Below are positions 2,520 to 56,354 of a stretch of DNA of 64,000 nucleotides, piece by piece. Under the pieces are notes generated by a model. The model did no database searches. It saw nothing but the letters and a program-made list of their open reading frames with translations, and had not been told where the DNA came from. Source of the stretch: Candidatus Kapaibacterium sp. (GTDB lineage: Bacteria > Bacteroidota > Ignavibacteria > Kapaibacteriales > UBA2268); the NCBI GenBank assembly GCA_026390695.1, contig JAPLFL010000101.1, positions 3,674 through 67,673 of the forward strand, read 5' to 3'. The translations under genes and the position numbers were made by a program. Position 1 is the first letter of the stretch. Every line of letters starts with the position of its first letter.

Positions 2520-3263
2520 ATGCCAGTAAAAGTAATTACAATAGATTTTTGGAATACCTTGTTCGATTCGAGTGCCGGAACCGAACGGAACACATATCGC
2601 CGCCAGTCATTGGTTAAGGAAATAAAGAAACTGAATGCCGAATTAAGTGAAATTGAGTTTAATAGTGCAATGGAGGCATCATGGGCTTTTTTTAATGATA
2701 ATTGGCTCAATCACAGCCGTACACCTGAGCCAAGCGAAACGGTGAAATTTTTTATGGACTTTCTACATTTAGATTTCACAGCCGAGCAATTTGATAAAGT
2801 TGTTTGGAATTTTGCAGAATCTGTGCTGGTTTTTCCACCTAAATTAATTGATGGAGTTCCTCAAGCACTCGAAAGTTTATCTTCAAAATTTAAATTGGGA
2901 TTGATTTCGGATACTGGATTTTCTCCCGGAACTGTATTGCGTGAGCTGATGAAAAGAACTAATATTTATCAATATTTTTCAGCATTTAGTTTTTCTGATG
3001 AAACCAAAGTGTCCAAACCGCATCCGAAAGCCTATCTTACAGTTTTAAATGAGTTGGAATGCAATCCTGAAGATGCTGTCCATATTGGCGACATTGCTCA
3101 GACTGATATTAAAGGAGCAAAAAATTTATCAATGAGAGCTATTCGGTTCATTGGCGACCAAACTTCAATGGTTCTAAAAAATACTGACATACAAATAGAA
3201 GCTGACTGGGAAGCAGAATCCTGGCATGAAATAGTAAAAATTATTAACGAAATTACTAATTAA
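2520..3263 (+). CDS. HAD-superfamily hydrolase.
   Basis: Motif I-like ITIDFWNTLF; motif III lysine (SKPHPK); motif IV HIGDxxxxD; length 247 aa. Confidence 0.65.
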   Translation: MPVKVITIDFWNTLFDSSAGTERNTYRRQSLVKEIKKLNAELSEIEFNSAMEASWAFFNDNWLNHSRTPEPSETVKFFMDFLHLDFTAEQFDKVVWNFAESVLVFPPKLIDGVPQALESLSSKFKLGLISDTGFSPGTVLRELMKRTNIYQYFSAFSFSDETKVSKPHPKAYLTVLNELECNPEDAVHIGDIAQTDIKGAKNLSMRAIRFIGDQTSMVLKNTDIQIEADWEAESWHEIVKIINEITN

Positions 3264-3326: not shown

Positions 3327-3459
3327 TGAGACTATCTCAAAAGCCTCATTTCTGTCATTCCTGCGAATGCAGGAATCCCCTAAAGTGGCACTGGCAGGAG
3401 ATTTCTGCATACGCAGGAATGACATTTTTGTTAAATATGTAGCTTTTGAGACAGCCTCA
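3327..3459. repeat. Single copy of the MITE-like palindromic element, with TIR-like ends TCTCAAAAGCCTCA / TTTTGAGACAGCCTCA.
   Basis: Same core as at 1253-1430; followed by a T-run at 3463-3470. Confidence 0.75.
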
Positions 3460-3682
3460 TTAGTTTTTTTAAAAATTATTTCGTAATTTGTAAATTGGTG
3501 TTTTATTTTTTTAAGTAATTTTGGATTTACATTTGATTAATTCTGATTTCATAGTAAAAGTTGCTCTGGAAGCTGTGTACGAATCAATTGGTAAAATTCA
3601 TTATTCGATTGTTCATAGGCAAGCAAAGAAAATCTATGAAGTAGATGACAAACAAATAACTTATATCGTTTCCTACTTTAAG

Positions 3683-3962: not shown

Positions 3963-6900
3963 ATGAAAAAACTATTCCTGTCAAAAAAAGTAATTCTTCT
4001 TGCATTGATTTTATCCGGTATTACTTTTATAGTTACGATCGGCTCAACTTATATAAATTATATCACAGCCTCTGATACTGTTCTGAAGGCATTGTTAGAT
4101 GATGCGGAAAGTGATAAAAACTTTGTTGAAACACTTTACAATAAAGGTTTCTCAAGAGACTCAATATTATCAGTTTTAAATCAAGTTCATAAATCCGTAA
4201 GAATGATAGGTAGTACAGGGGAATTAGTTATAGGTGAATTGTATAAGGATTCAATAAATTTTATAGTGAGAAAGACCATAAATGGAGATGGTGAAAAAAT
4301 TAGTGTTAGCCTTAAATCCAATAAAATAGCAGGTCCGATGCGCTCGGCAATGTCAAAAAAAACTGGGAATTATCAGGGCTTGGATTATCGAGGAAGTAAA
4401 GTCTTTGCAGGTTACACATATTTTGCACCATTTCAATGGGGAATTGTTTCCAAAATAAGTGTAGAAGAAGTACGGGAGCCATTTATTTATTCCCTTTTAT
4501 ATTGCTTTATACCAGCCATTTTATTAACTTTTTTTGGGTCTTTACTTTTTATAAAAGTAACAAATCCGATGATAACGGCTATCAGAAAAAGTGAGGAAAA
4601 TTTATCGATTACTTTGAATTCAATTGGTGACGGCGTTATCTCTACCGATGAGCATGGCATGGTTGTACAATTAAATCCTGTAGCCGAGAAACTCTGTGGT
4701 TGGAAAATTGATGAAGCTCGTGGAAAACCTCTTAACGAAGTTTTTAAAATTATTAATGCTGAGACAAGGTTGATAGTTGAAAATCCTGTTAAAAAAGTGA
4801 TTGAAAATGGACAGATTGTTGGGCTCGCCAATCATACAGTTTTGATTTCCAGGGACGGGAAGGAATATCAAATAGCTGATAGTGCAGCTCCTATAAAGGA
4901 TGTAGCAGGAAGAATCAATGGTGTTGTCATGGTATTTTCCGATGTAACGGAAAGATATGCAGCAGAATACGCTTTACGCAAAAGTCAAGAGCAATTAAAT
5001 ATTATTTTTCAAGAATCACCTGTCGCATCTGTACTGGTTGGAATGGATAAAAAATTTATAAAATGTAATTCTGCATTCAGCAATTTTTTGGGATATTCGG
5101 AAATTGAAATAATTGGAAGGACTATTGAGGAAGTAACTTATTCTGAAGATGTTGAAATCGCAATGCCTGAAATGAAGCTGTTAGTGGAAGGGAAAATAAA
5201 AACAGTAAAAGCAGAGAAACGTTATGTGAGAAAGAATGGAGAACTTATATGGGGTGAGATAAAAATCTCCCTGGTACATGATGAGAACAATAAACCCTTA
5301 TATTTCTTACCGATTATTCATAATATTTCTGATAGGAAAAAAGCAGAACTTGAATTGAAAGAAAGTGAAGCTACTTTCCGTGAATTATGGAACGCAACAA
5401 TTGAGGGAATTACTATACACGACAGAGGTATTATTCTTAAAGCAAATGATGCGATGTGCCGGATGTTTGGCTATGAACCTGAGAATGTAATAGGAATGTC
5501 CTTGCTAAAATTTGCAGCACCTGAAGTGCACGATTTTCTTCGTAAAACTATGGCAACAGATAGGGATGGACATTTTGAATTACCATGTATAAAAGCAGAT
5601 GGCACCAAAATGATTGTCGAAACATTTTCAAAGATGATCAGATATAAAGGTAAAGACCTTAGAATGGCTGCCAACCGTGATATAACCGAACGGAAGAAGG
5701 CAGAAGCAGCTGTTTATAAAGCTAAGTTGGAATGGGAGGCAATTTTTCACGGGATATCTCATCCGACGATAATTTTAGGGCCGGACAATAATATTCTTGA
5801 AATCAATGAAGCTACCGAAAGAATGCTTGGCAAGAATATATCCGAACTTAAGGATCTCAAATGTTGGGAGATTTTTCATGGTAATGCCCATTCCGAGCGA
5901 CCTTGCGGATGCCCGTTCACGAAATTACTTGATAGCAATTCGAGCCAAACTGAGGAGATGGAAATTGAAGCCGTAAGTGGTACTTTTATAGTTTCCTGCA
6001 CTCCAATTTTCGATGCAGGAGGAAAATTAGAAAAAGTTGTTCATATTGCCACTGAAATAACAGAAAGAAAAAAGGCAGAGAATGCTTTGAAAGCAAGTGA
6101 ACTAAGGCTCCAACTAATTCTTGAGAATATGCCGATCCTCCTTAATGCTTTCGATGATAACGGTAATATAATCGTCTGGAATAAAGCGTGTGAAGAAGCA
6201 ACAGGGTATAGTGCAGTTGAAATAATTAATAATCCACAGGCTTTAGAACTTTTATATCCGGATATTGATTATAGAAATAATGTGATGAAGGATATTGCTG
6301 ATCCCAAATATTCAGATAATGTTTATGATTTAGTGAAGAAAAATAAAGAAATTCGGACAATAGAATGGTTCGATATTTATAAAAAGATCCGTATTCCGGG
6401 TTGGCCATCTTGGGGACTTGGTCAGGATATCACTGATAGATTGCGTGCCGAAGAATTATTAAGACAAAGCGAGGAGAAGTTTAGAAATATTTATGAAAAT
6501 TCTCAGGAAGGAATCTTCCAAACGAGGGCTGATGGCTCTTATATTTCTGTTAATACAGCTTTAGCTAAGATGTATGGTTATGATTCTTCCGAGGAACTTA
6601 TGGATAATAGAGCCAACATAGCATTTGATTCTTATTTTAACCCAGAAGACCGTAATCAATTTCTTAAAATTATGGAGGAAAAAGGATTAATTCGGGGTTT
6701 TGAATATCAGGTTAAGCATCGCGATGGCCATAATATGTGGTTTTATGAAGATGCAAAAGCTATTAAGGATGAAAATGGGAACCTTGAATATTTTGAAGGA
6801 TTTGTTGTTGATATTACTGAGAAAAAGTTAGCGGAAGAGGCACTGAAGGCAAGTTATGCTGATTTAAGAAGAGCTGAACAAGTCTCTAAAATAGGTTATT

Positions 6901-8828
6901 GGACATTGTATTTGAATGAAAAAATTATGTCCTCCTCGGAAAATGCCAATAAAATTTATGGATTTGAGAATAATCAAAATTCTTTATCAGAAATTCAAAA
7001 AGTAGTTTTACCGGAATTCAGACAATATCTTGATTCTGCATTGCAGGAATTTATCGTAAATGGTAAACCTTATGATACCGAATATAAAATTAGAAGAATA
7101 ACAGATAATAAAATCATAGATATTCGTTCAGTGGCGGAATTTGATCGTTCGAAAAATATTATTTTCGGTGTAATTCAGGATATTACTGAACGTAAAGATT
7201 ATGAAGCAGCAATAATAAAAAGCGAAAAATTCCTAAAAGAAACACAAAAAATTGCTAATCTCGGTACTTATAATATGGATATTATTTCGGGTTTGTGGGA
7301 GTCTTCTGCTATTCTTGATGAGATTTTCGGAATAGATGCCAGTTTCGAGAGAACAGTCGAAGGTTGGGCTTCAATTCTGCATCCGGATTGGCGTAAATTA
7401 ATGACAGATTATTTGATAAATGAAGTATTTGGAAAGGGTGTTACTTTTGATAAGGAGTATGTTATTATTAGAATTAACGACAGGTCGGAACGATGGCTTC
7501 ATGGAATAGGCGAACTTAAATTTAATGAAAATCATGTACCTATAATAATGATCGGAACCATTAGAGATATTACTGAGAAAAAGCTTGCAGAGGAATTACT
7601 AATTGATAAAAATCATGAAATTGAAGCACAATATGAAGAATATATGCAACTTAACGAACAGCTTCGTAAAACAAATTATGAACTTGAAATAGAAAAAGCT
7701 CATGCCGAAGAAAGCGAAAAACTTAAAACCTCATTTCTCCAGAACATGTCCCATGAAATCAGAACTCCGCTTAATGGGATTATGGGATTCTCCGGATTAT
7801 TGAGAGATTATGATGATCTAAGTCAGGATGAAAGCAAAGACTATATCAATATTATTGTCAATTCATCTAATAGATTATTGGCAATAGTGGACGATGTGCT
7901 GGATATTTCAAGAATAGATTCAAACTCTTTGTCAATTAATAAAAGTGATTTTCTTTTGACTGAATTGTTGCATTATTATCAGTCATTGTATAATTCTCAA
8001 ATTCGATCCAAGGGACTTAACTTTATTATTAAAATTCAAGATAAATGCTCGGAATTGAAATTATTGACTGACAAAGATAAATTAAGCCAAATAATTACTA
8101 ACTTAATGAATAATGCAACAAAATTTACTCACAAGGGTGAAATCGAACTTGGAGTTAATAGAGACAAAGATAAATTAAATATATATGTCCGTGATACTGG
8201 AATCGGAATAAAAGGGGAATATCTTGAAAAAATATTTGATCGATTCTGGCAATATGAGGCCTTTGTTGAGGAATTCTACGGTGGAACCGGATTGGGTCTC
8301 TCTATTTCCAAAGGATTGGCTGAACTTTTAGGGCTGCAAATTTCTGTTGAATCAGTTTTTGATCAAGGAACTACTTTTACATTGACTTTTAATCCAGATT
8401 CTTTTATTGAAAAAAATGATAGTTTTACTATAAATAAAACAATTACAAGAGAATATTTTGATTTATATGGTTTAAAAGTTCTAATTGTTGATGATGAAGA
8501 AACAAATTATTTGTATTTAAAATCATTGCTTAAAAGGATCAATTCGCACATTCACTGGGCTCGCAATGGTCAGGAAGCAATTGACATGTGCCAGCTAAAT
8601 TCTTATGATTTGATTCTTATGGATTTGAAAATGCCGGTTATGAACGGTTTCGATGCAACAAGAAAAATTCGTGAGTTTGATAAAAATATTTTTATTATAG
8701 CGCAAACGGCCTACACTCAGGGCGAAGAAAAAGAGCATGCTATTGATGCCGGATGTGATGAATTTATATGTAAACCGATTGAGCGAGAGAATCTATTTTA
8801 TTTGATTAGAGAAAAATTAAGGAAATGA
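3963..8828 (+). CDS. Hybrid sensor histidine kinase/response regulator. It has an N-terminal periplasmic Cache-like sensor between two TMs, about 7 PAS domains, HisKA, HATPase_c and a C-terminal receiver.
   Basis: H-box SHEIRTPLNGIMGFSGLL; G-boxes DTGIGI and GGTGLGLSI; receiver VLIVDDEE...DLILMDLKMPVMNG; repeated PAS cores. A signal/TM segment opens the protein, and a second TM at ~aa 175-195 bounds the periplasmic sensor before the first PAS. Confidence 0.9.
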   Translation: MKKLFLSKKVILLALILSGITFIVTIGSTYINYITASDTVLKALLDDAESDKNFVETLYNKGFSRDSILSVLNQVHKSVRMIGSTGELVIGELYKDSINFIVRKTINGDGEKISVSLKSNKIAGPMRSAMSKKTGNYQGLDYRGSKVFAGYTYFAPFQWGIVSKISVEEVREPFIYSLLYCFIPAILLTFFGSLLFIKVTNPMITAIRKSEENLSITLNSIGDGVISTDEHGMVVQLNPVAEKLCGWKIDEARGKPLNEVFKIINAETRLIVENPVKKVIENGQIVGLANHTVLISRDGKEYQIADSAAPIKDVAGRINGVVMVFSDVTERYAAEYALRKSQEQLNIIFQESPVASVLVGMDKKFIKCNSAFSNFLGYSEIEIIGRTIEEVTYSEDVEIAMPEMKLLVEGKIKTVKAEKRYVRKNGELIWGEIKISLVHDENNKPLYFLPIIHNISDRKKAELELKESEATFRELWNATIEGITIHDRGIILKANDAMCRMFGYEPENVIGMSLLKFAAPEVHDFLRKTMATDRDGHFELPCIKADGTKMIVETFSKMIRYKGKDLRMAANRDITERKKAEAAVYKAKLEWEAIFHGISHPTIILGPDNNILEINEATERMLGKNISELKDLKCWEIFHGNAHSERPCGCPFTKLLDSNSSQTEEMEIEAVSGTFIVSCTPIFDAGGKLEKVVHIATEITERKKAENALKASELRLQLILENMPILLNAFDDNGNIIVWNKACEEATGYSAVEIINNPQALELLYPDIDYRNNVMKDIADPKYSDNVYDLVKKNKEIRTIEWFDIYKKIRIPGWPSWGLGQDITDRLRAEELLRQSEEKFRNIYENSQEGIFQTRADGSYISVNTALAKMYGYDSSEELMDNRANIAFDSYFNPEDRNQFLKIMEEKGLIRGFEYQVKHRDGHNMWFYEDAKAIKDENGNLEYFEGFVVDITEKKLAEEALKASYADLRRAEQVSKIGYWTLYLNEKIMSSSENANKIYGFENNQNSLSEIQKVVLPEFRQYLDSALQEFIVNGKPYDTEYKIRRITDNKIIDIRSVAEFDRSKNIIFGVIQDITERKDYEAAIIKSEKFLKETQKIANLGTYNMDIISGLWESSAILDEIFGIDASFERTVEGWASILHPDWRKLMTDYLINEVFGKGVTFDKEYVIIRINDRSERWLHGIGELKFNENHVPIIMIGTIRDITEKKLAEELLIDKNHEIEAQYEEYMQLNEQLRKTNYELEIEKAHAEESEKLKTSFLQNMSHEIRTPLNGIMGFSGLLRDYDDLSQDESKDYINIIVNSSNRLLAIVDDVLDISRIDSNSLSINKSDFLLTELLHYYQSLYNSQIRSKGLNFIIKIQDKCSELKLLTDKDKLSQIITNLMNNATKFTHKGEIELGVNRDKDKLNIYVRDTGIGIKGEYLEKIFDRFWQYEAFVEEFYGGTGLGLSISKGLAELLGLQISVESVFDQGTTFTLTFNPDSFIEKNDSFTINKTITREYFDLYGLKVLIVDDEETNYLYLKSLLKRINSHIHWARNGQEAIDMCQLNSYDLILMDLKMPVMNGFDATRKIREFDKNIFIIAQTAYTQGEEKEHAIDAGCDEFICKPIERENLFYLIREKLRK

Positions 8829-8887: not shown

Positions 8888-9910
8888 ATGAGTTATCATA
8901 TTGATTATAAGAGGATTAATTGGTTAAGAAAACCAAGGAATTTGAAACTAATTCTTACTATACAACTAAGTGTAATTCTTATTTTGATAATTATAATGAC
9001 AAATTGCTTTAAAAAGCCACAAGAACCTATCCGAATCGGAATTAGCCCATGGCCTGGCTATGAACCTATGTTTTTGGCAAGAGAAAAGGGATACTTTTCC
9101 GAAAAAGATGTCAAGTTAATCGATTATACTTCAGTTACAGGCCAATCAAGAGCTTTCGTTAATGGAGCTGTCGATGCTGCTGCTATGACTCTTGATGTTG
9201 CAACCAAATTAAGAGAAAGCGGAGTCGATCTTAGAATTGTACTTGTCTTTGATGTTTCAAACGGTGGGGATGTTATTCTCGCAAATCCTGTATATCAAAC
9301 CTTAAAGGATCTAAAAAATAAAAAAATCGGTGTTGAGACAACTTCAATCGGTGATTATATGATTTCACGTGCTTTGGAATTATCCGGCATGAAACTTACG
9401 GATATTAAGGTTGTTCCTTTGGAAATTTCCGAACATGAAAGAGCATTTAAAGAAAAACGAGTTGATGCTATTGTTACTTATGAACCTGTCAAAACCAAAT
9501 TAATTGCTTACGGGGCTAATAAAATATTTGATAGTTCGCAAATACCGGGAGAAATAGTTGATGTTCTTGTTGTAAGAACTGATTATTTGAAAAAAGGAGA
9601 TAAACAATTAATCTCACTTTTAAATGGATGGTTCAAAGCATTAGGAGCACTAACGACAGATAGCTTAAACTCAATTCGTTTTATGGCTGCAAGGGAGCAA
9701 ATCTCCGATAAAGAATTTATTTTATCTTTGGAAGGGTTAACGATACCCAATATGCAAAGTAATATAATGCAGCTTGGTGGAGCAAATCCCGGACTGCTTG
9801 CACCTGCAAGACATCTTGAGAGAATAATGTATGAAAAGAAGCTCATCGAAGGTCGTGTGGACTTAGTTAAACTTTTTGATGCCTCATTTATTGAAAGGTT
9901 GACTAAATGA
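8888..9910 (+). CDS. Periplasmic substrate-binding-protein-like sensor partner (NMT1/SsuA/TauA-like fold). Its stop overlaps the start of the downstream kinase.
   Basis: N-terminal TM anchor; IRIGISPWPGYEP...KIGVETTSIGD pattern is typical of NMT1/SsuA-type SBPs; ATGA overlap at 9907. Confidence 0.55.
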   Translation: MSYHIDYKRINWLRKPRNLKLILTIQLSVILILIIIMTNCFKKPQEPIRIGISPWPGYEPMFLAREKGYFSEKDVKLIDYTSVTGQSRAFVNGAVDAAAMTLDVATKLRESGVDLRIVLVFDVSNGGDVILANPVYQTLKDLKNKKIGVETTSIGDYMISRALELSGMKLTDIKVVPLEISEHERAFKEKRVDAIVTYEPVKTKLIAYGANKIFDSSQIPGEIVDVLVVRTDYLKKGDKQLISLLNGWFKALGALTTDSLNSIRFMAAREQISDKEFILSLEGLTIPNMQSNIMQLGGANPGLLAPARHLERIMYEKKLIEGRVDLVKLFDASFIERLTK

Positions 9911-12663
9911 AAATATTAACTCTATTCCCATTACGCATCACAATACCATTATTTTTATTAATAACAGCGCTGGTTCTACTTGTTTTAACCGTTGAAAATA
10001 ATCTTCGTATATCTAATAAATATCTTGAAGAAAATGGAATTACTACACATATTCATGATATGACTATTTATCAGGGTATTTTCAATAATCTATTCCGTAA
10101 AGGCGATATTGAAGGCATTCAAGCTATTATAGCAGATATGGGATCGGAACCAAATTTAATTCATATTGCTTTGTTTGATCAATCTAACAAGATACTTTAT
10201 AGTAATGACTCTCATATTATCGGTAAATTAGTGCACGAAGTATTTGAAACAATTAACTTACAAACAATAGCGGATTGCAGGAAAAGCGGACGCGGGATTG
10301 TTTCGCTTTCAAGCACAGGTGATACTATTTCTGCCAACTATCCAATACTTATACACCCTCAAATTGAAGAAATGAAGCAAACTTCAGTTGCCGTGCTCCA
10401 CGTTTGTGTTGATCTATCAACTCCAAAAGCAAAGCTAAGATATGAAACATGGCAGCAACACTTTGTTTATATTATATATTCTATCATTATCTTCGTTATT
10501 CTCGGCTACTTATTACGTTTTGTTGTTTCCAAAAGAGCTGCCGAGCTTGTTGCAACTTCCCATAATTTCTCCGAAGGCGATCATTCCGTCCGCTCAAAGC
10601 TGCAAGGCAATGATGAACTTGCCCGAATTGCTTTTGCAATGAATCAAATGTTCGATCAAATCATTGCAAACCAAAACAAACTTAGCGAAAGCCAGCTTAA
10701 ATATCGGCAATTATTTGATAGCATCATGGATTCCTTCGTCCGAATGACGATTGACGGTAATATATTAGAATGTAACCCTTCTTTTGAGCTTATGTTGGGC
10801 TATTCACACGATGAAATCACAAATCTAACAAGTAAATCCATTACCCCTGATAAATGGTGGAAGATTGATTCCTCTTTCTTGCATGAAGAAATTCTTCCAT
10901 TCGGTTTCTCATCTGTTTATGAGAAAGAACTAATCAAGAAAGACGGCTCCGTAATCCCTGTTGAGCTTCGCACATTCAGTATAAGCAACGCTGTAAGCGG
11001 ACAATTATCGCTTTGGAGCATTGTTCGCGATATTACAGAGCGGAAAAAGACTGAACTAATTCTTCAGGAAAGTGAAACAAAGCTCCGTGCCATTTTTGAA
11101 AGCTCACGTTACGCTATCGGTGTTTCACTAAAAGGTATCCATGTCCTTGCAAACCCGTCCTATCTCAAATTATTCGGCTATGATAACATTGATTCCCTTA
11201 TCGGAACCTCTATTTTGGATAATATTGCTCCTGATTTCCAAAATGATATTATGCAAAAGATTCAATTAAGAGCAGCAAACAAGAATTTACCTTCTTTTTA
11301 CGAAACTCGTGGCCGACGAAACGATGGACATGAGTTTGATATGGAAGTTAATGTTTCGTCATACAATCTCCAAAACGAAAAATTCACTCTCGTTACTATT
11401 CGCGACATCACCGAACGCAAGAATTCCGAAGAATTACTCTTAGAACAGAATAAAAATCTTGAGGCGCAGTATGAAGAATACATGATTCTCAATGAAAAAC
11501 TTCGTATTATCAATTTTGATCTCGAAGCAGCAAAAGGAAAAGCCGAAGAAAGCGACAAATTAAAAACCGCATTCCTGCAAAATATTTCTCATGAGATTCG
11601 CACACCTCTCAATGGCATCATCGGATTCTCTAATTTACTTAATGAAGCTGATGTCTCCAAAGATGAAATCACAGAATATTCCTGCGTAATCAAACAAAGC
11701 GGTAAAAGATTAATTGAAATCGTTAATAATGTTATTGATATTTCTAAAATAGAAACAGGAATGATCGAATTAAACATCCAATCCTTTTCTCTAAATGCAC
11801 TTATCGAAGACCTATATGAATTTTTCCTGCCGATGGCAGAACTAAAAAGCCTCAAATTGAATTATATCATTCCCCAAAATAATGAAAGCTCAATTGTATC
11901 GGATGAATCCAAAATTGTTCAGATTCTTACCAATCTTATAAATAATGCAATCAAATTTACATTTGCCGGATCCATTAATTTTGGTTATAAAATCATAGAT
12001 GAACTTATACTTTTCTTCGTCGAAGACAGCGGAATCGGGATACCGGACGGTATGAACAATAGAATATTTGAACGATTCGTTCAGGTTGACCTTTCAATCA
12101 CCAGAGGATACGAAGGAGCCGGTCTCGGACTTGCAATAAGTAAAGGTCTTGTGGAATTATTGGGTGGTTATATTAGTTTTAAATCTGAACTAAACAAGGG
12201 AACTAAGTTTGAATTTTCAATTCCCTATTCCCCAATTCAGAAAACAAATAAACAAGAATCTCTGACAAAAGAAATAAGTATAGAATCCAATATTGAAGCT
12301 AAGATTTTGATTGCCGAAGATGATTTTACAAGTTTTAGGCTATTACAAACAAGTTTAAAAAATAAGAATTACGAACTTATATTAGCTGAAAATGGCCAAA
12401 AAGCTGTTGAAATGGTATTACATAATTCGGATATCGATATTGTATTTATGGATATAAGAATGCCAGTAATGGATGGCTTTGAAGCAACGAGACAAATCAA
12501 AAAATTACGCCCTCAATTGCCTGTTATAGCTCAGACAGCTTATGCTTTTAGCGAAGAAAAGATGCAAATAATGACAGCAGGATTTGACGATTACATTTCA
12601 AAACCTATTGATTTAAATAAAATTAAATTCCTAATCGAGAAATTCGTAAATAAACAAAAGTAA
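9907..12663 (+). CDS. Hybrid sensor histidine kinase with TM sensor region, HAMP, about 3 PAS domains, HisKA, HATPase_c and a C-terminal receiver.
   Basis: H-box SHEIRTPLNGIIGFSNLL; DSGIGIP and GAGLGLAISKG; receiver ILIAEDD...DIVFMDIRMPVMDGFEATRQIKK. Confidence 0.9.
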   Translation: MKILTLFPLRITIPLFLLITALVLLVLTVENNLRISNKYLEENGITTHIHDMTIYQGIFNNLFRKGDIEGIQAIIADMGSEPNLIHIALFDQSNKILYSNDSHIIGKLVHEVFETINLQTIADCRKSGRGIVSLSSTGDTISANYPILIHPQIEEMKQTSVAVLHVCVDLSTPKAKLRYETWQQHFVYIIYSIIIFVILGYLLRFVVSKRAAELVATSHNFSEGDHSVRSKLQGNDELARIAFAMNQMFDQIIANQNKLSESQLKYRQLFDSIMDSFVRMTIDGNILECNPSFELMLGYSHDEITNLTSKSITPDKWWKIDSSFLHEEILPFGFSSVYEKELIKKDGSVIPVELRTFSISNAVSGQLSLWSIVRDITERKKTELILQESETKLRAIFESSRYAIGVSLKGIHVLANPSYLKLFGYDNIDSLIGTSILDNIAPDFQNDIMQKIQLRAANKNLPSFYETRGRRNDGHEFDMEVNVSSYNLQNEKFTLVTIRDITERKNSEELLLEQNKNLEAQYEEYMILNEKLRIINFDLEAAKGKAEESDKLKTAFLQNISHEIRTPLNGIIGFSNLLNEADVSKDEITEYSCVIKQSGKRLIEIVNNVIDISKIETGMIELNIQSFSLNALIEDLYEFFLPMAELKSLKLNYIIPQNNESSIVSDESKIVQILTNLINNAIKFTFAGSINFGYKIIDELILFFVEDSGIGIPDGMNNRIFERFVQVDLSITRGYEGAGLGLAISKGLVELLGGYISFKSELNKGTKFEFSIPYSPIQKTNKQESLTKEISIESNIEAKILIAEDDFTSFRLLQTSLKNKNYELILAENGQKAVEMVLHNSDIDIVFMDIRMPVMDGFEATRQIKKLRPQLPVIAQTAYAFSEEKMQIMTAGFDDYISKPIDLNKIKFLIEKFVNKQK

Positions 12664-12690: not shown

Positions 12691-13908
12691 ATGAAAACAG
12701 AAAATATGACTTATGAAGAGCTTCTAAAATATAAATTAGCTCTCGATTCCTCAAGCGAATCCATATTCATCACTGCCCCGAATGGAATTATAACATACAT
12801 AAATCCTGCGTTCACCGATCTTTACGGTTATACCCCCGATGAAATAGTCGGCAAGCATACCCCAATTATTCTGAAGGGCGAAAAATCAAGTAAATTATAT
12901 AAAAAATTTTGGAAAAACATTGTTGAAGGAATGGCAGACAAATCCGAATACATGAATAAGACAAAAGATGGGAAGATATTGATTATTGAATCAACAACAA
13001 ACCCTTTTCTAAACGAGGAAAATCAATGCTTAGGGTTTATTTGCGTTCAAAGAGATGTGACAGACCGTAAAGATAGAGACGAAGAATACTCTTATTTGAT
13101 TTCGGAGCTAACTGTGTCAAGGGATATGATTGAAACAAACCTGTTTCAGACTAATGAATTGATAGAACAACTGTCTGAAACGCAGGAAGCCCTTGAAAAA
13201 ACTAATTCGGAGAAAGATAATTTCTTTTCAATTATTGCGCATGACTTGAAAAATCCGCTTGGAAACTTCAGAAATGTTACTGAGCTTTTGTCAGATTCTT
13301 ATGCAGACTTTTCGGAAAAAGATAGAATTGAGTTTATCGGATTAATGAACGATTCAGCCAAAAATATATATGCTTTACTCGAAAATTTATTAGAGTGGTC
13401 ACGTTCGCAAAGAGGGCAAATTCCGTTTCAGCCATTGTTATTTAATTTAAAAATGATGTCAATAGATATATTTAAATTAATGAAGCCGTCGGCAGATGCA
13501 AAAAATATAGAATTAATAAATCATATTCCGGTTAATTATGAGATAAATGCCGATCTAAATATGATAAATACAGTAATTAGAAATTTAATTTCCAATGCAA
13601 TAAAATTTACTCCGAATGGAGGAATGATTGAATTGGGATTAAAAAATATAAATGATAATAAGATTATGACGGAAGAATGTATATATATAAGGGATAACGG
13701 ATTAGGTATGAATAAGGAAATGTGTAATAAGTTATTCCGAATTGATACAAACGTAACTACTCCCGGAACAAATGCTGAAAAAGGAACAGGATTAGGGCTT
13801 ATATTATGTAAGGAATTTATTGAAAAGCACGGCGGAAAAATCTGGGTTGAAAGTGAGGAAGGCAAAGGAAGCACCTTTTATTTTACGATACCTAAAAGCA
13901 TAAAGTAA
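12691..13908 (+). CDS. Cytoplasmic PAS-domain sensor histidine kinase.
   Basis: PAS (ITYINPAFTDLYGYTPDEIVGK), H-box AHDLKNPLGNF, HATPase RNLISNAIKFTP...GTGLGLILCKEFIEKHGGKIWVES. Its kinase core is a close paralog of that at 14684-16429. Confidence 0.85.
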   Translation: MKTENMTYEELLKYKLALDSSSESIFITAPNGIITYINPAFTDLYGYTPDEIVGKHTPIILKGEKSSKLYKKFWKNIVEGMADKSEYMNKTKDGKILIIESTTNPFLNEENQCLGFICVQRDVTDRKDRDEEYSYLISELTVSRDMIETNLFQTNELIEQLSETQEALEKTNSEKDNFFSIIAHDLKNPLGNFRNVTELLSDSYADFSEKDRIEFIGLMNDSAKNIYALLENLLEWSRSQRGQIPFQPLLFNLKMMSIDIFKLMKPSADAKNIELINHIPVNYEINADLNMINTVIRNLISNAIKFTPNGGMIELGLKNINDNKIMTEECIYIRDNGLGMNKEMCNKLFRIDTNVTTPGTNAEKGTGLGLILCKEFIEKHGGKIWVESEEGKGSTFYFTIPKSIK

Positions 13909-13929: not shown

Positions 13930-14200
13930 ACTTCAATAAAGCCTGTCATTCCTGCGGAAGCAGGAATCCCCAAAATAAACGAACCTGTCATTTCTGCAAA
14001 TGCAGGAATCCCCAAAATAAACAAGCCTGTCATTCCTGCGGATGCAGGAATCCCCATAATGAATAAACCTGACCATGCAACATAAACATGAAGCCAAAGA
14101 GAGAATCAAAAATGGGATTCCTGTATGCACAGGAATGACAGAAAAAATAGTGCTGTCATTCCTGCAGATGCAGGAATCCCCAAAATGAATAAACCTGACC
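13930..14200. repeat. Cluster of at least 5 copies of the GTCATTCCTGC(G/A)GA(A/T)GCAGGAATCCCC palindrome, including three 42-bp tandem units.
   Basis: Direct reading: CCTGTCATTCCTGCGGAAGCAGGAATCCCCAAAATAAACGAA repeats three times, followed by two inverted copies. Confidence 0.75.
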
Positions 14201-14377: not shown

Positions 14378-14526
14378 GCGCAGCGGAATTGTATTTAAGG
14401 ACAGCGGATTAGTATTTAAGGACAGCGGATATGTATTTAAGGACAGCGGATTTGTATTTAAGCGCAGCGGATTTGTATTTAAGGACAGCGGATTAATAAT
14501 TTAATGGAGCGGATTTGTATTAAAAG
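14378..14526. repeat. Tandem direct repeat, 7 x 21 bp, unit GACAGCGGATTTGTATTTAAG. It lies ~160 bp upstream of the GAF-PAS kinase gene.
   Basis: Seven consecutive near-identical 21-mers were read directly from the sequence. Confidence 0.85.
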
Positions 14527-14683: not shown

Positions 14684-16429
14684 ATGAAAAACATTATTAG
14701 CAGAAGAGAAGAAGAAAGAATAGCGGCATTAAAAAGCTATAATATCTTAGATACCTCTCCTCAAAAGATCTATGACGACATTACATTATTAGCATCTCAG
14801 ATTTGTGACACACCAATCTCTCTTATATCATTAATTGATGAAGATAGACAATGGTTTAAATCGAAGCAAGGTGTAGATGTGGAATCCACACCACGAGAGA
14901 TCGCATTTTGCGCACGGGCTATCGAGACTCCAGAGGAATTATTCATCGTTTCGAATGCAATGGAGGATGAACGATTTAAAAATAACCCATTAGTAACGGA
15001 ATACCCTTATATTAGATTTTATGCGGGCGCTCCACTTGTAACAAATGACGGTTATGCTTTAGGAACCCTCTGCGTTATAGATCGGGAGCCGCGTGTACTA
15101 AAACCGAAGCAGTTAGAAGCATTAACGGCGCTGCGCAATGGAATAGTAACTGCCTTTGAACTTGAACGGACTAACAGGTTTCTAAAAGAATCCGAAGAGA
15201 AGCAAAAGCAATTATTAGAGGAAACAGTGGAAAAAGACAATGCCACAAGATCAATTATCGAGTCTGCACCGAACGCAATGATTCTTATAGAAGCAAATGG
15301 AGTCATTAGAATGGTAAATATACAAACGGAAAAGATATTCGGCTATTTACGAGATGAAATTATTGGTAAGCAAATAGAAATATTACTCCCTCCGGAACAT
15401 TCTGACATCTTTATAAAGCTAAGAGAAACCTTTATAACCAAACCTTCTCACAAGGCAATAGGGTATGGCAGAACATTATATGGAATAAAGAAGGACGGAG
15501 TACGGTTCCCGATTGAAATAGGATTAAATCCTCTTTTAAATAAGGGGAAATTATGGATATTAGTATCAGTTATCGACATTAGTGAGCGGAAAAACCACGA
15601 TGAAAAGCAAAAAATATATCTTGAAGAATTAAAAGAGAAGAATGGAATCATAGAGCGCGGCTTAAATGAGAAACATGTATTAATCGGAGAACTGACTGAA
15701 GCTAAAGAAAAACTGGAAACTCTCAACGCAACAAAAGATAAGTTCTTTTCTATTATAGCGCATGACTTAAAAGGGCCATTAGGCAGCTTTAAACAAGTAA
15801 CTGAACTGTTAGCAGAATCATATTCCGAGTTTCCAGAGGAAGATAAAGTTGAATTTATCTTATTAATGAGTCAAGAATCAAAGAATTTATACTCTCTTCT
15901 TGAGAATTTACTTGAATGGTCACGGTCGCAGAGGGGGAATATCCCGTTTAACCCAGAGAAATTCAATTTAAAGATGATGTCAATCGAAATTATCAAACTT
16001 ATGAAGCCAACTGCCGAGAAAAAAAGGATTGAACTTATAAATCATATTCCCATTTCCTTAGATATAATAGCGGATGAAAACATGATAAACACAGTTATCC
16101 GAAATTTAATATCGAATGCCATTAAGTTTACACCCGATTGTGGAAGTATAGAACTGGGAATACGAGCTAAAACCACTGAGGAATTCAGTTCATCGGAGGA
16201 TTGTATTTTTATAAAGGACTCCGGGCTTGGTATGAGCCTTGAAACACGGGATAAATTATTCAGAATCGATACTCAGGTGACAACTCTCGGAACGAATTCG
16301 GAGAAAGGAACGGGTTTGGGATTAATTTTATGTAAGGAATTTATTGAAAAGCATAGTGGGAAAATCTGGGTAGAGAGTGAGGAAGGGGAGGGGAGTACAT
16401 TTTATTTCACAATACCAAGAAGAAAATGA
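14684..16429 (+). CDS. GAF-PAS sensor histidine kinase, paralog of the 12691-13908 kinase.
   Basis: N-terminal GAF-like region; PAS; H-box AHDLKGPLGSF; HATPase RNLISNAIKFTP...GTGLGLILCKEFIEKHSGKIWVES, near-identical to the 12691 gene. Confidence 0.85.
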   Translation: MKNIISRREEERIAALKSYNILDTSPQKIYDDITLLASQICDTPISLISLIDEDRQWFKSKQGVDVESTPREIAFCARAIETPEELFIVSNAMEDERFKNNPLVTEYPYIRFYAGAPLVTNDGYALGTLCVIDREPRVLKPKQLEALTALRNGIVTAFELERTNRFLKESEEKQKQLLEETVEKDNATRSIIESAPNAMILIEANGVIRMVNIQTEKIFGYLRDEIIGKQIEILLPPEHSDIFIKLRETFITKPSHKAIGYGRTLYGIKKDGVRFPIEIGLNPLLNKGKLWILVSVIDISERKNHDEKQKIYLEELKEKNGIIERGLNEKHVLIGELTEAKEKLETLNATKDKFFSIIAHDLKGPLGSFKQVTELLAESYSEFPEEDKVEFILLMSQESKNLYSLLENLLEWSRSQRGNIPFNPEKFNLKMMSIEIIKLMKPTAEKKRIELINHIPISLDIIADENMINTVIRNLISNAIKFTPDCGSIELGIRAKTTEEFSSSEDCIFIKDSGLGMSLETRDKLFRIDTQVTTLGTNSEKGTGLGLILCKEFIEKHSGKIWVESEEGEGSTFYFTIPRRK

Positions 16430-20920: not shown

Positions 20921-21255
20921 GATCGTTTCCTACTTGAAGGCTGTCATTCCTGCGTATGAGCCTGTGTGAAAACATCAATTTCTTGTCATTCCTGCGCATG
21001 CAGGAATCCCCTGATTGGCACTGGAAGGAGATTCCCGCATTCGAGCCTGTGTGAAAACATCAATTTCTTGTCATTCCTGCGCATGCAGGAATCCCCTGAT
21101 TGGCACTGGAAGGAGATTCCCGCATTCGAGCCTTGTGAAAACATCAATTTCTTGTCATTCCTGCGCATGCAGGAATCCCCTGATTGGCACTGGAAGGAGA
21201 TTCCCGCAGTGCGGGAATGACAAGAATTCCTAATTCATTAAGGAAATGATATAAA
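20921..21255. repeat. Three tandem ~85-bp copies of the palindromic element, with a composite flank ending TTAAGGAAATGATAT.
   Basis: Unit starts at 20962, 21047 and 21131; the core is GTCATTCCTGCGCATGCAGGAATCCCC. Confidence 0.8.
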
Positions 21256-25855: not shown

Positions 25856-26782
25856 TTATTCTAATCCAAGAGATACCGGAAGTTCATTTGACCACTCACC
25901 GCTACCATTATCATTGGTTCCACGGCAACGATATAGCCAATCTCCAATACCAGGATTATGCATAATTAATAATTCAGCACCTGAATAAGCATTCGTCCAA
26001 TCGGGAACTGGTCCTGATGGATTTAAAGATTTATATTCTAACTCGTAAGCATTTGCTGAAGCGGCTGGATTCCAACTTGCAGTGAATGTGGCATTATCAT
26101 AAGTTAATCCCTGTACCTTTGAAGGCAGATCAGGAGTTGTTCGATAAATTATATAATCATTATACTTGGCTTCATCAACATTTTCCCAGATTAATTTACC
26201 TATTTTGCAATATTGAGTAATGTATGAAAACAGTTCATTACCTTTCTGTGTGCGTTCGACAGTTTTTGAATCACGTAATTGCTTTTTAGTATTGATGTCA
26301 ATTATTTTATCTTCAATATCTCCTGTATTTGAGGTCAAATCAACTAATAAAGTTGTCGTTAAACCAATTGCTGAGAGGTCAGCAAAATAAGCAGATGCCT
26401 GAGCAGCAACATTACGGGCTGTTAGAATAAAATTTCCATCTGAGAAATTATGAAATCCCTTAATTCTAAGACTTGAATACTTCCCAGAATTAGTTCCATA
26501 CTTCTGTTCAAAGAACCCAGAAACAGTTTGAATCTCTGTTGTTAAAGTATCTCGTAAAGCCTTCTTCTCGGAAGCTTCATCCTTAATCTCGCCAATATAA
26601 ACTTCATCCGGTGGAACAGCATCAAAGGCGGTTTTCAATACTGATAAAGCTGTTATATCTCCAGAATCAACACCACGAGTTGCAAATTGGGTTGAATCTC
26701 TTGTCATATTAGCAATAATTTTTGCTGCTAATATACTTAATTCTGCATTAGACATCGAATAATCTCGATTAATCTCTTTCAT
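25856..26782 (-). CDS. Hypothetical protein with a C-terminal fibronectin-III-like domain. It is paralogous to 61146-62111 and 48464-49072.
   Basis: Shares KGNELFSYITQYCKIGKLIWEN with the 61146 gene (KGNELYALVTKYCNIGKMIWEN); FN3-like tail (SWNPAASANAYELEYKS...). The true start is possibly the internal MSNAEL at 26755. Confidence 0.6.
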   Translation of the reverse strand: MKEINRDYSMSNAELSILAAKIIANMTRDSTQFATRGVDSGDITALSVLKTAFDAVPPDEVYIGEIKDEASEKKALRDTLTTEIQTVSGFFEQKYGTNSGKYSSLRIKGFHNFSDGNFILTARNVAAQASAYFADLSAIGLTTTLLVDLTSNTGDIEDKIIDINTKKQLRDSKTVERTQKGNELFSYITQYCKIGKLIWENVDEAKYNDYIIYRTTPDLPSKVQGLTYDNATFTASWNPAASANAYELEYKSLNPSGPVPDWTNAYSGAELLIMHNPGIGDWLYRCRGTNDNGSGEWSNELPVSLGLE

Positions 26783-26860
26783 TATAGTACCCTTCTCTAA
26801 TATATTGGAAAATAAAACAATTACTGCATCTATTATATAAATTTATATTTACTTTAAAGC

Positions 26861-27007
26861 GGTTTAATGATCCCTTAAAACAGTTTATTGATCTCTTGAA
26901 ACAGTTTATTGATCTCTTGAAACAGTTTATTGATCTCTTGAAACAGTTTATTGATCTCTTGAAACAGTTTATTGATCTCTTGAAACAGTTTATTGATCTC
27001 TTAAACG
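26861..27007. repeat. Tandem direct repeat, 7 x 21 bp (CAGTTTATTGATCTCTTGAAA), ~80 bp upstream of the 25856-26782 gene.
   Basis: Read directly: six perfect copies plus one degenerate copy. Confidence 0.9.
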
Positions 27008-27270
27008 CATAATAGATTAATATATTCTCTTCGATTAATAATAAACTTAACATAATATATTAATTATTGATCTAATAAATATTTTATTATATTGATTCTT
27101 TGCTGCCATTGTTCTTGTAGATTATTTTATTTAATTAGTAATATCAAAAATTTATATAATAAATAATTTCATACATCCAGCAATTACAAATATAATAAAA
27201 AATAATGGTATTATCAAGTATAATTTTAAAATAATTTAATATATTTGTGGGAAAATAGAATAATATTCAC

Positions 27271-27321: not shown

Positions 27322-27410
27322 ATTAATATAATTATATTTCACTTTATATTTTATATAAAAAGTGTTCAGAATGACTGAAAATGAGGTTAGATTGTAAGGA
27401 AAATAAGAAA

Positions 27411-27655
27411 ATCCCCATTGAATCCCATTTAGGAAAGGGGGAAACTTGGAAAATCCCCCTTAGTCCCCCTTTTTCAAAGGGGGAAACTTGGAAAAACTAC
27501 CTTAATCCCCCTTTTATAAAGGGGGAAACTTGGAAAATCCCTCTTAATCCCCATTTAGGAAAGGGGGAAACTTGGAAAATCCCCCTTAATCCCCCTTTTT
27601 CAAAGGGGGAAACTTGGAAAATCTCTCTTGATTCCCATTTAGGAAAGGGGGATTG
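27411..27655. repeat. About 6 tandem 41-42-bp units, each encoding a CCCCC-UUUUCAAA-GGGGG hairpin plus AACTTGGAAAA. The array is at the 3' end of the Nramp-related gene.
   Basis: Read directly; GC-clamp palindromes stand out in the AT-rich context. Confidence 0.85.
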
Positions 27656-28956: not shown

Positions 28957-29152
28957 AGGGGGAGATTATATTGGATATATTATAGCTACAATTAGTTAAG
29001 AAGGAATATTTCTTCATCCCCCCTTTGAAAAAGGGGGTTATGGGGAATTTCCAATTCTTCATTCTTTTGGAGAAATAGGTTAGGGTGATTTTCCAATTCT
29101 TCATTCTTTTGGAGAAATAGGTTATGGGGATTTTCCAATTCTTCATTCTACT
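28925..29152. repeat. Two CCCCCTTT-loop-AAAGGGGG hairpins followed by 2.5 tandem 42-bp units (TTCCAATTCTTCATTCTTTTGGAGAAATAGGTTATGGGGATT), between the MgtE_N/CBS gene and the Nramp-related gene.
   Basis: Direct reading. Confidence 0.8.
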
Positions 29153-30722: not shown

Positions 30723-31286
30723 ATGCAAGAAATACTTCAAAATAACGAAACGCTCAACTTTGAGAAAGTTTGGCTGATGTTTCAAGAGACTGATCGTAGA
30801 ATGAAAGAGACTGATCGCCAGATGAAAGAGACTGATCGGAGATTGAAAAATCTAATGTCGAAAACCGACGGAATGGAAAAAAGATGGGGAAAGTTCGTTG
30901 AAGCATTAGTTGATGGAGCTTTGGTGAGGTTATTCAGAGAAATTGGAATTCAAGTTAACGGAACTTCCCAAAGGACTTATCGTTACTATGAGAATAAAAA
31001 ATATGAATTTGATTTGATTGCAAAAAATGGTGATGACCTTGTTATAGTTGAAGTTAAAACAACAATGGATGTAAATGATGTGAAACATTTTATTAATAAA
31101 ATAAAGAAATTTAAGTTAGTATTCAGCGAATATTCCAACAATAACATATTTGGAGCCGTTGCTTACATAAATCTAAATGGTGATTCAGACATTTTTGCAG
31201 AAAGACATGGCTTATATTTGATAAAAGCCACTGGAGAAAGTGCAAAATTAGTTAATAATGAAGGATTTAAACCAAGGAATTGGTGA
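30723..31286 (+). CDS. PD-(D/E)xK nuclease-fold protein (DUF3782-like) with an N-terminal ETDRRMK tandem heptad.
   Basis: YEFDLIA...DLVIVEVKT is a restriction-endonuclease-like D...(D/E)xK core; the N-terminal KETDRQMKETDRRLK repeat. Confidence 0.45.
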   Translation: MQEILQNNETLNFEKVWLMFQETDRRMKETDRQMKETDRRLKNLMSKTDGMEKRWGKFVEALVDGALVRLFREIGIQVNGTSQRTYRYYENKKYEFDLIAKNGDDLVIVEVKTTMDVNDVKHFINKIKKFKLVFSEYSNNNIFGAVAYINLNGDSDIFAERHGLYLIKATGESAKLVNNEGFKPRNW

Positions 31287-40364: not shown

Positions 40365-40454
40365 AAATATATTTTTGAAGTCTATTAATTTATTTACAAT
40401 ACATATAAATTATCATCGTCATCATCTCCGCAATTGACATATTTATTAATGTTG

Positions 40455-40620
40455 CCGAAATTCATGCAAAAACATGAATGCGGGGGAACCACTACCGGGG
40501 CGAATTCTCATAGTTCAGAGAAAGGATACTTCCAAATCCGAGCCCGTCAGCTAACCTCGTAGGCTAATGGAAGAGCATTGGACAGACAATTACCACTGCC
40601 CTTGCTGCTGTGGTTTTTTT
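40455..40620 (+). ncRNA. Candidate ydaO-yuaA (c-di-AMP) riboswitch with an intrinsic terminator, in the 5' leader of the KimA-like gene.
   Basis: Ordered conserved-looking blocks GGGGGAACC, GGGGCGAAUUC and CCCGUCAGCUAACCUCGUAGGC, with nested pairings CUUCCA/UGGAAG and AGCC/GGCU. The terminator is AACCAC-loop-GUGGUU plus U7 at 40592-40620, and AACCAC also occurs at 40486, allowing anti-terminator competition. Family assignment is from memory of the ydaO consensus. Confidence 0.5.
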
Positions 40621-48209: not shown

Positions 48210-48395
48210 TGAATATTGGTTTATAAAAATAGAATGCTGGATCTTAAAAATAGAACATTGGATTTTAAAATTGAGATATTGGATTTTAAAAATGAAACAT
48301 TGGATTTTAAAAATGAAACATTGGATTTTAAAAATAGAATGCTGGATTTTAAAAATGGTACATTGGATTTTAAAAATAGAATCTATAAATTTGTA
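48210..48395. repeat. Tandem direct repeat, about 8 x 21 bp (TGAAACATTGGATTTTAAAAA), ~70 bp upstream of the 48464-49072 gene.
   Basis: Read directly: seven good copies and one degenerate copy. Confidence 0.9.
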
Positions 48396-48463: not shown

Positions 48464-49072
48464 ATGCCTACAACAGATTTTTTACCATCACGTGATGGTG
48501 ATTTAGTCCCATGGACTGAAAATTTTATAACAATAGCTACTGCTAATCTTACTGTTCTTGGTCTTGTCACTGGCGATATGACCACTTTGACAACAAATAA
48601 AACAAATTATTCAACCGGTTTGAATAATGCAGTTGCTAAACAAGCCGAATCCAAAGCAGCTACGGATAATAAGAACATCAAAAGAAGTACTCTGTCTGCT
48701 AATATTCGCGATCTTGCACGTCAAATTCAAGCTCATCCGGGAGTTTCGGATAGTTTGAAGGTGCAGTTAGGGCTAAAACCTTCTGATCCAACTCCTACTC
48801 CTTCAATTCCACAAATTCCAACTGAATTAACATTAACAACAATATCGGGAGCATTGATTTCTTTAAAATGGAACCGAAATGGCAATTCTCAGGGAACAAT
48901 TTTTGTAGTTGAAGCTTCAGGTGTGCCTGATCATGCTTTTATGATCATTGATTCAACAACTAAAACTACTCTGGAAACTCCTTATCGCAATCCGACAGGT
49001 TCAACATTTTTCCGTGTTCGGGCTAAAAAGAATGATCAAACAAGTGATCCGAGCAATGTTATTGTGATTTAA
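48464..49072 (+). CDS. Hypothetical protein with a C-terminal FN3-like domain, a short paralog of 25856-26782 and 61146-62111.
   Basis: N-terminal LVPWTENFITIATANLTVLGLVTGDMTTL aligns with the LxxxAxxIxxxxTRDxTxFxxxGVxxGxI of the other two paralogs; FN3-like tail LKWNRNGNSQGTIFVVEAS...FFRVRAKK. Confidence 0.5.
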   Translation: MPTTDFLPSRDGDLVPWTENFITIATANLTVLGLVTGDMTTLTTNKTNYSTGLNNAVAKQAESKAATDNKNIKRSTLSANIRDLARQIQAHPGVSDSLKVQLGLKPSDPTPTPSIPQIPTELTLTTISGALISLKWNRNGNSQGTIFVVEASGVPDHAFMIIDSTTKTTLETPYRNPTGSTFFRVRAKKNDQTSDPSNVIVI

Positions 49073-56104: not shown

Positions 56105-56354
56105 TAACTTATATTTATATATTTAACTACCATTACAAAATTATGAAATATTTTGCAAAAATTAGAATACTTCTCAAAATATTTATTTATTATTGTCTTG
56201 AAATATCATGCACTCAGACTATTTTATAACTTAAAAAATCCAAAAATAGAAATCAAAGTTGAAAATTTTTATTTGCTTTCAATTACTTTTATTCTTATAT
56301 TTGAATTGTTCGTTTTATAATGAATATTTATTAATCATAAAGATTGGAGGCTTT

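Follow-up and report, generated by a model that had tools for sequence, protein, structure and literature searches.

Strictly periodic 21-bp tandem arrays of variable sequence upstream of a helical-bundle gene family in Bacteroidota and Ignavibacteria/Kapabacteria

Plasmid iterons are direct repeats, about five to seven or more in number, that lie roughly two helical turns apart at replication origins beside the rep gene, bind Rep and have a sequence private to each element; the gamma origin of R6K has seven such units of 22 bp. Partition centromeres (parC, sopC and tubC) consist of tandem direct repeats beside the operon that they serve, and are bound cooperatively into a higher-order complex. 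At promoters occupied by several response-regulator dimers (BvgA, tandem pho boxes), the sites are about 22 bp apart on one face of the DNA. Contingency loci, such as the 7-bp repeats 5' of hmw1A and hmw2A, accompany multicopy, diversified gene families, and their copy number can modulate expression. A report on BvgA at Pptx describes activation through many weak response-regulator interactions (PMC7250471), and the sites of LytTR regulators are direct repeats of 9 bp separated by 12 bp, or of 10 bp separated by 11 bp in the case of SilA, giving a period of 21 bp (PMC2766830). Here, we describe four arrays of 21-bp repeats in a stretch of 64,000 nucleotides from Candidatus Kapaibacterium sp. 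(contig JAPLFL010000101.1, positions 3,674 to 67,673, hereafter referred to as the window), together with their counterparts in other genomes. Helical-bundle proteins, with or without an FN3 domain, form a family whose genes have as their obligatory upstream partner an array that varies in sequence but keeps strictly to a 21-bp period, and this partnership spans phyla (Bacteroidota and Ignavibacteria/Kapabacteria).

The arrays of the window were delimited with Tandem Repeats Finder (TRF) and by direct reading of the sequence. Array 1 (14381–14521, plus strand; TRF period 21, 6.7 copies, 85% match; unit CAGCGGATTTGTATTTAAGGA) is located 162 bp 5' of the ATG of a GAF-PAS-HisKA-HATPase sensor kinase gene (14684–16429, plus strand). 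Array 2 (26862–27006, minus strand; 21 × 7.0, 96% match; unit in gene orientation TGTTTCAAGAGATCAATAAAC) is located 79 bp 5' of a gene of what we call family 1, encoding 308 amino acids (aa) (25856–26782, minus strand), and array 3 (48211–48381, plus strand; 21 × 8.1, 80% match; unit GAACATTGGATTTTAAAAATA) is located 82 bp 5' of a family-2 gene encoding 202 aa (48464–49072, plus strand). Array 4 (62292–62469, minus strand), 180 bp 5' of a second family-1 gene encoding 321 aa (61146–62111, minus strand), was reported by TRF as 42 × 3.2 and can also be read as 21 × 7.2 at 66% match; 3.2 double units of 42 bp are followed by degenerate 21-bp units, for a total of about eight units. The initial annotation had proposed four arrays of head-to-tail 21-bp units differing in sequence and lying 60–200 bp 5' of start codons, and both points are borne out, the measured distances being 79–180 bp. 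The seven copies that it gave for each array are approximately correct in the window (6.7–8.1), but not for the family as a whole, in which copy number ranges from 1.9 to 18, with a median of 5.75.

In pairwise comparisons, the best circular matches between the unit types of the window covered 9–13 of 21 positions (P 0.16–0.99 versus shuffled units). The short cores previously noted in these units (TGAAACA and ATTGAT/ATTGGAT) do occur, but the resemblance among the four units does not exceed that among shuffled sequences, so the cores carry no weight and the related DNA-binding specificities deduced from them are not supported. A search of the window with full units, allowing up to three mismatches, gave matches only within the array of origin (0.00–0.02 expected from shuffles). 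It follows that the arrays are not pieces of a dispersed family of miniature inverted-repeat transposable elements (MITEs), nor of repetitive extragenic palindromic (REP) elements, as their folding was no better than that of shuffled sequences, and they can be regarded as independent promoter-proximal units, as first suggested.

For an analysis beyond the window, TRF was run on 80 family-1 loci (79 of them usable), with one genome per species, from metagenome-assembled genomes (MAGs) of Kapabacteria and Ignavibacteria and from Chitinophagaceae, Chryseobacterium, Epilithonimonas, Limnovirga, Sunxiuqinia, Marinifilum and others. An array of period 21 (or 42/63) was found within 700 bp upstream of the gene in 69 of the 79 loci, and 89 upstream arrays of period 21 were counted. 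Array density was 1.70 per kb upstream of the gene versus 0.044 per kb over the other 528 kb of these loci, a 39-fold difference, which ties the arrays to the gene family rather than to random positions. Plain autocorrelation also gave lag 21 as the best of lags 12–32 in 69 of 78 upstream regions, versus 8 of 73 control regions, and five of the nine loci with enough upstream sequence and no TRF array still peaked weakly at this lag. For family 2, a 21/42/63-bp array was found directly upstream in 10 of 13 metagenome loci, and the available upstream sequence is short in at least two of the remaining three. No conserved neighbor gene, whether a regulator or a partner, was found around the family-1 loci; the conserved unit is the array plus the gene. 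There are at least three arrays in the present genome and at least 8–10 in related genomes. We found no match to a known system in Rfam, Pfam, NCBIfam, PHROG or PADLOC and nothing relevant to 21-bp tandem arrays in Bacteroidetes in the literature searched. The initial statement that this layout has no described counterpart thus stands, and the architecture is probably that of tandem operator arrays, of a sort for which we found no prior description.

Some loci depart from the simple arrangement. In composite upstream regions (L029 3063–3809; L040 2141–2590; L005 3717–3969; L022 3755–3957), two or three adjoining arrays with unrelated units, all of period 21, extend over as much as about 720 bp in total. 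At locus L047 (3934–4131), a 21-bp array of 9.4 copies occupies the convergent intergenic region 3' of the family gene, and at L002 one unit type occurs twice, inverted and 3 kb apart (5727–5832 and 2785–2830), beside small genes that resemble the toxin-antitoxin type when judged by eye; both are exceptions to the upstream rule. A number of records with the family gene and AT-rich arrays are labelled Hyphomicrobiales, Thermoplasmatales archaeon, Methanosarcinales archaeon, Hodarchaeota or Caldilinea (L002–L034, L011, L071, L073); their gene is of the Bacteroidota/Ignavibacteriota type, and they are probably mislabelled or mis-binned.

The two family-1 proteins of the window, of 308 and 321 aa, are evident paralogues (34% identity, E 1e-48), whereas the family-2 protein of 202 aa is related to family 1 only distantly (BLASTP E 0.1; hhalign probability 63%, E 6.8e-5 across 185 columns), with a single cross-family tblastn match (E 3.7e-4). 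The proposal of three FN3-tailed paralogues consequently holds for two of them. The FN3-like C-terminus itself is confirmed by fold and profile searches and by an AlphaFold model of the 308-aa protein (predicted local distance difference test score of 92), in which a long, acidic helical bundle (residues 12–208) is followed by a beta-sandwich (residues 227–305) matching solved FN3 domains; the 202-aa protein, with a short helical N-terminus and an FN3 domain, is a smaller version of this arrangement. Proteins of both families are annotated only as hypothetical. The 308-aa protein had no match in Pfam, NCBIfam, PHROG or PADLOC, and a fold search with the N-terminal domain returned only generic helical bundles, with no functional lead. 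Family 1 comprises hundreds of clusters at 50% identity, in three forms (N-terminal domain only, about 220 aa; with one FN3 domain, about 310 aa; with two, about 400 aa), and is present in at least 8–10 copies in several genomes. A phage, defense or plasmid origin of the family was ruled out, as no PHROG, PADLOC or viral-contig matches were obtained. The kinase downstream of array 1 belongs outside this helical/FN3 family, and its closest full-length homologue elsewhere has no array, so that the association of a kinase with an array is specific to the present lineage.

The period is fixed, but the sequence of the units is not. Unit similarity between loci falls to the background level once protein identity drops below about 70–80%; L017 and L018, for example, encode proteins that are 80% identical, with units that match at only 10 of 21 positions. 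In a cluster-wise permutation test, the similarity of units between distant lineages did not exceed chance, and an apparent conservation between Chitinophaga and Chryseobacterium (16 of 21 positions, inverted) was dropped, as it was at chance level in this test. The orthologous arrays of Chryseobacterium and Epilithonimonas are collinear, with units homogenized within each species; within a genus, the units of orthologous arrays change together, an instance of concerted evolution.

We favor, with a probability of about 0.4, an interpretation in which the arrays are helically phased rows of sites for cooperative binding by locus-specific transcription factors, LytTR-type response regulators being the leading candidates. 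Protein binding to the arrays, the identity of the binder and the sign of the effect on transcription are all features that we infer. Each array would be a cis-regulatory module placed just 5' of the core promoter, in which the 21-bp unit, equivalent to two helical turns, would line up like sites on one face of the DNA. The row would be bound cooperatively by a sequence-specific transcription factor, the gene for which would lie elsewhere, and the downstream gene would thereby be switched. Each array type would be a private address, with a sequence that drifts and is re-homogenized by concerted evolution, and the geometry of the proteins bound in a row would keep the 21-bp spacing constant. 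The putative binder would not be the product of the downstream gene, since the family-1 proteins are acidic and have a generic helical-bundle fold rather than a DNA-binding fold.

Of the three mechanisms put forward in the initial annotation, cooperative binding by a phased regulator fits best, because two unlinked loci of this genome have a unit type in common. A third family-1 paralogue of this MAG, P0048, is encoded on another contig (locus L097), and its upstream units, such as CACAGCGGATTTGTATTTTAG, correspond to the array 1 unit at 19 of 21 positions, in register over several units, in the same orientation and at a similar distance from the ATG. Either one regulatory module was copied before a different gene or one factor serves both loci; in either case the array acts as a portable control region defined by its sequence. 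The recurrence of the array 1 unit at an unlinked locus argues for a sequence-specific factor acting in trans, and the kinase (14684–16429) and P0048 are predicted to be co-regulated, in that one factor would control both through their common array type.

The LytTR lead comes from the units themselves. The consensus [TA][AC][CA]GTTN[AG][TG] was found in 8 of 64 units, versus 1.75 expected (4.6-fold, P<0.001), including those of array 2, in which ACAGTTTAT on the plus strand is a full match to the consensus. CCGTT was present in 11 units versus 2.1 expected, and both CCGTT and CGGA[AC] remained enriched once redundancy had been removed. Among 93 ORFs (open reading frames) in the flanks, one probable LytTR regulator was recognized by eye. 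A LytTR binder is nevertheless suggested rather than demonstrated, as most units have no box and no core/spacer pattern is seen.

Several observations weigh against a row of regulator sites. No regulator gene, LytTR genes included, was found in the window or as a conserved neighbor of the family-1 loci. The LytTR consensus is absent from 56 of the 64 units, known LytTR promoters have 2–3 repeats versus 3–18 here, and Gibbs sampling for a motif common to all arrays gave results only marginally above those for shuffles. Within units, the variable positions show no clustering (longest conserved run 9.1 versus 8.7 for random placement), although this core/spacer test is weak because whole units are copies by descent. 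Where one genome has many paralogues whose units differ, a large set of distinct regulators would be required. The similarity between array 1 and L097 extends about 50 bp beyond the array, and the shared unit could thus reflect plain segmental duplication of the promoter region rather than a shared factor. Finally, four Chryseobacterium species have, about 150 bp 5' of the array, a strongly conserved and perfect Bacteroidetes promoter, TATATTTG, and a small conserved ORF (L072 3556–3666; L074 3551–3667; L075 3531–3641; L081 3553–3675), and the array could be transcribed from this promoter. The small ORF encodes a peptide of 36–40 aa (MMIYKNNPAvHAQaSGT...), has an A-rich leader and changes mostly synonymously in its first 20 or so codons.

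The period could instead act through geometry, independently of sequence, 21-bp repeats (2.0 helical turns) summing bends in phase to generate curved DNA, so that only the period would be selected; we consider this explanation unlikely, although several observations are consistent with it. The period is kept and the sequence is not, a common motif does not emerge, variable positions are scattered in the units as if neutral, and the composite regions of L029, L040, L005 and L022 combine two or three unrelated unit types. In a wedge model with assumed parameters, 21-bp arrays were more curved (end-to-end/contour ratio of 0.765) than when their units were set to 20 bp (0.907) or 22 bp (0.849), and the bend per unit was 19.3 degrees for real units versus 16.8 degrees for shuffled units (P ~0.02). 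However, this excess over shuffles is small, and several long arrays are predicted to be nearly straight (ratio of 0.96 for L029). The presence of one unit at two unlinked loci would be unexpected if sequence were irrelevant, except through plain duplication, and the enrichment in CGGA[AC], CCGTT and LytTR boxes points to some sequence constraint. Equally doubtful is the corollary that RNA polymerase is stimulated directly by such a curved segment, or that a nucleoid protein without sequence specificity coats it. Only tentatively, then, might the arrays be seen as a new class of cis-element, in which selection would act on repetition and the exact 21-bp period but not on sequence, and which would be kept by concerted evolution over phylum-scale time. 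Its reader would be RNA polymerase itself or a protein that forms filaments or recognizes shape, instead of a conventional motif-specific factor. Such a rule may also underlie the excess of 42-, 84-, 105- and 126-bp intergenic repeats in these genomes.

The position of the promoter bears on a second alternative, in which the promoter would lie 5' of the array and the repeats would act in the 5' untranslated or intercistronic RNA, for example as a platform for an RNA-binding protein, or as roadblocks within the transcription unit. The Chryseobacterium promoter and small ORF described above, with no obvious terminator between the ORF and the array, are compatible with such a transcribed leader. 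So is an element shared by Kapaibacterium paralogues with unrelated arrays, TTCAGACGGCAATTTnCnnTTGTTCTTTGAnAATTGA, which is located about 100 bp 5' of the array (L025 ~3330–3440; L026 ~3435–3545; L029 ~2900–3010; L031 ~3440–3490) and may be a common promoter or regulator site. Conversely, a Bacteroidetes −7 box (TAnnTTTG) was found between the array and the ATG, at −25 to −75, in a third of the Bacteroidia-type loci (13 of 39, versus 7 of 39 for the control strand), and array 3 is followed immediately by TAAATTTG, which matches this box, so that the arrays would be placed upstream of the core promoter. A scan for sigma-70-type promoters was uninformative in this AT-rich DNA. RNA folding did not exceed that of shuffled sequences, LytTR-like boxes were found on either strand (3 versus 5), base composition was nearly symmetric and no k-mer was significantly strand-biased after correction for multiple testing. 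These results make a leader function quite improbable.

Copy number bears on a third possibility, a contingency locus or rheostat in which slippage would add or remove 21-bp units, shift promoter geometry by whole turns and tune single paralogues. Copy number spans 2–18 across the family, recent paralogues differ (18 versus 13 units at 95.7% DNA identity, 12.4 versus 10.8 at 86%), and a multicopy, diversified family is typical of variable surface or interaction proteins. However, in a single comparison, limited to one lineage with degenerate units, the arrays of four strains or samples resembling Chryseobacterium hispalense, whose proteins are identical (L081, L099, L101, L102), were collinear, with point changes only and no gain or loss of units, and the P0048 array was identical in two samples (L097 and L098). 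The units of most arrays are imperfect (60–90% match), making them poor substrates for slippage, which alone would leave the period of 21 unexplained. The stability among strains and samples, taken with the differences between paralogues, indicates that copy number changes on evolutionary timescales and not at hypermutable rates; slippage-based tuning, another of the mechanisms originally suggested, therefore has little to recommend it.

Copy numbers also depend on the assembly, as seen in a comparison of array 2 (window 26862–27006) with loci L001, L005–L022 and L025–L045. A single-contig Kapaibacterium genome of 4.5 Mb had 11–18 copies per array (median 14.3, 300 bp), a MAG assembled with MEGAHIT at k141 had a median of 7.3 copies (153 bp), k141 and SPAdes MAGs had about seven (~150 bp), and a k=31 Logan contig ended inside array 2. 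The array size of ~147 bp in the window may accordingly be an assembly ceiling. Arrays break short-read assemblies, so most family members are found on contigs of 1–5 kb; family loci are systematically broken up, and MAGs probably under-call the copy numbers of the arrays.

A fourth explanation is autoregulation, with the helical/FN3 protein binding its own array, as in iteron-Rep or ParR-parC systems, and its specificity co-evolving with the unit. The gene is the sole conserved partner of the array and unit type follows protein relatedness at high identity, but the proteins are acidic (median isoelectric point 4.74; 4.85 for the N-terminal domain), the array 1 type precedes an unrelated kinase gene, and paralogues that are 75–80% identical carry unrelated units, all of which makes autoregulation a very remote prospect. 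It is just as hard to believe that the arrays have no function, as neutral minisatellites or assembly artefacts lying near these genes by chance: although the window arrays (141–178 bp) are close to the repeat limit of de Bruijn assembly at k ~127–141 and the k=31 contig breaks within array 2, the same architecture recurs in independent assemblies, isolates and a single-contig genome, in at least two phylum-level lineages and two protein families, the arrays are 39-fold denser 5' of the gene than in the rest of the loci, they outlast sequence divergence to saturation, and an artefact of assembly can affect copy number only, not the existence of an array.

Other classes of element were considered and rejected. 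A coding heptad repeat (21 bp being seven codons) is not tenable, as the gene strand is closed in every frame for 11 of 53 arrays, and open frames through the arrays are alike on both strands and fewer than in shuffled units; the 94-aa ORF across array 2 (26769–27053, minus strand) is a frame artefact. A coding case of this period was seen elsewhere in the window, where a 21-bp × 3.1 repeat (30784–30848) is in frame within the ORF 30723–31286 and encodes a heptad of the KETDR type. The arrays are not a structured RNA (folding z-scores of −0.37 to +1.44 versus shuffles) or a known Rfam family, and a CsrA-like strand-specific GGA/CGGA motif was not significant. The sole Rfam match in the window was a cyclic di-AMP riboswitch (RF00379, 91.6 bits) at 40443–40580, 5' of an amino-acid permease gene (40660–42642). 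A sigma-54 enhancer (an upstream activating sequence for bacterial enhancer-binding proteins) was rejected, as weak −24/−12 matches (TGGCAC-N5-TTGC) were found in only 2 of 77 loci. Plasmid iterons were also rejected, because there is no adjacent rep gene or origin, the neighbor is a non-Rep helical/FN3 protein and the arrays lie in an ordinary chromosome, the window including the gyrA C-terminus, a penicillin-binding protein gene, serS, ppk, many PAS kinases and cargo proteins of the type IX secretion system.

The window contains a second class of intergenic repeats, hairpin-forming REP-like units (13942–14071, 20958–21208, 27407–27652, 29036–29149, 62681–62766), also present in loci L006, L007, L017, L032 and L033, with periods that are mostly multiples of 21 (42, 43, 84/85, 105, 126 and 168). 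The hairpin-containing 42-bp arrays among them (13942–14071, 27407–27652, 29036–29149) constitute a class separate from the 21-bp arrays. The hairpin GTCATTCCTGCGxATGCAGGAATCCCC is recurrent at several sites and is found also beside the P0048 array (L097 1–30). Five PAS/GAF sensor histidine kinases are encoded in the 64 kb (3963–8828, 9907–12663, 12691–13908, 14684–16429, 56259–59663), two of which are hybrids with receiver domains; no DNA-binding response regulator was found in the window.

If the arrays are bound by regulators, they would provide an easily recognized handle on gene regulation in Bacteroidota and Ignavibacteriota, the promoters and regulons of which are poorly mapped, and matching units would define regulons by eye, as for the kinase and P0048. 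The arrays flag a large family of proteins known only as hypothetical, with up to 10 or more copies per genome, and the strict conservation of the unusual control region implies that this family has an important role, probably as a switch. If sequence proved to be irrelevant, the arrays would be a rare case in which the periodicity of DNA is itself the conserved character.

Each of the described systems shares part of this architecture. The arrays resemble iterons in the number and spacing of their repeats and in their private sequences, but they are chromosomal, numerous in each genome and located beside an acidic, non-Rep protein, with no origin features. Unlike parC, sopC and tubC, they have no ParA, ParM, TubZ or adaptor gene nearby, and there are many of them per chromosome. 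They differ from the hmw-type tracts in having 21-bp, often imperfect units and no strain-level copy variation in the one lineage compared. Like the arrays, the LytTR sites of AgrA P2/P3, ComE, PlnC/D, SilA and AlgR are direct repeats 5' of an activated promoter, with a centre-to-centre distance of 21 bp (PMC2766830). However, the known LytTR sites comprise two and only rarely three repeats, in which a core of 9–10 bp is conserved and the spacer is free, whereas the arrays consist of 3–18 whole 21-mers, most of them lacking the consensus, with no core/spacer pattern and no linked LytTR gene; the arrays therefore have only the geometric features of LytTR operators. BvgA sites and pho boxes, lastly, are degenerate copies of one genome-wide consensus, whereas the arrays are near-identical tandem duplications, the sequence of which is specific to each locus.

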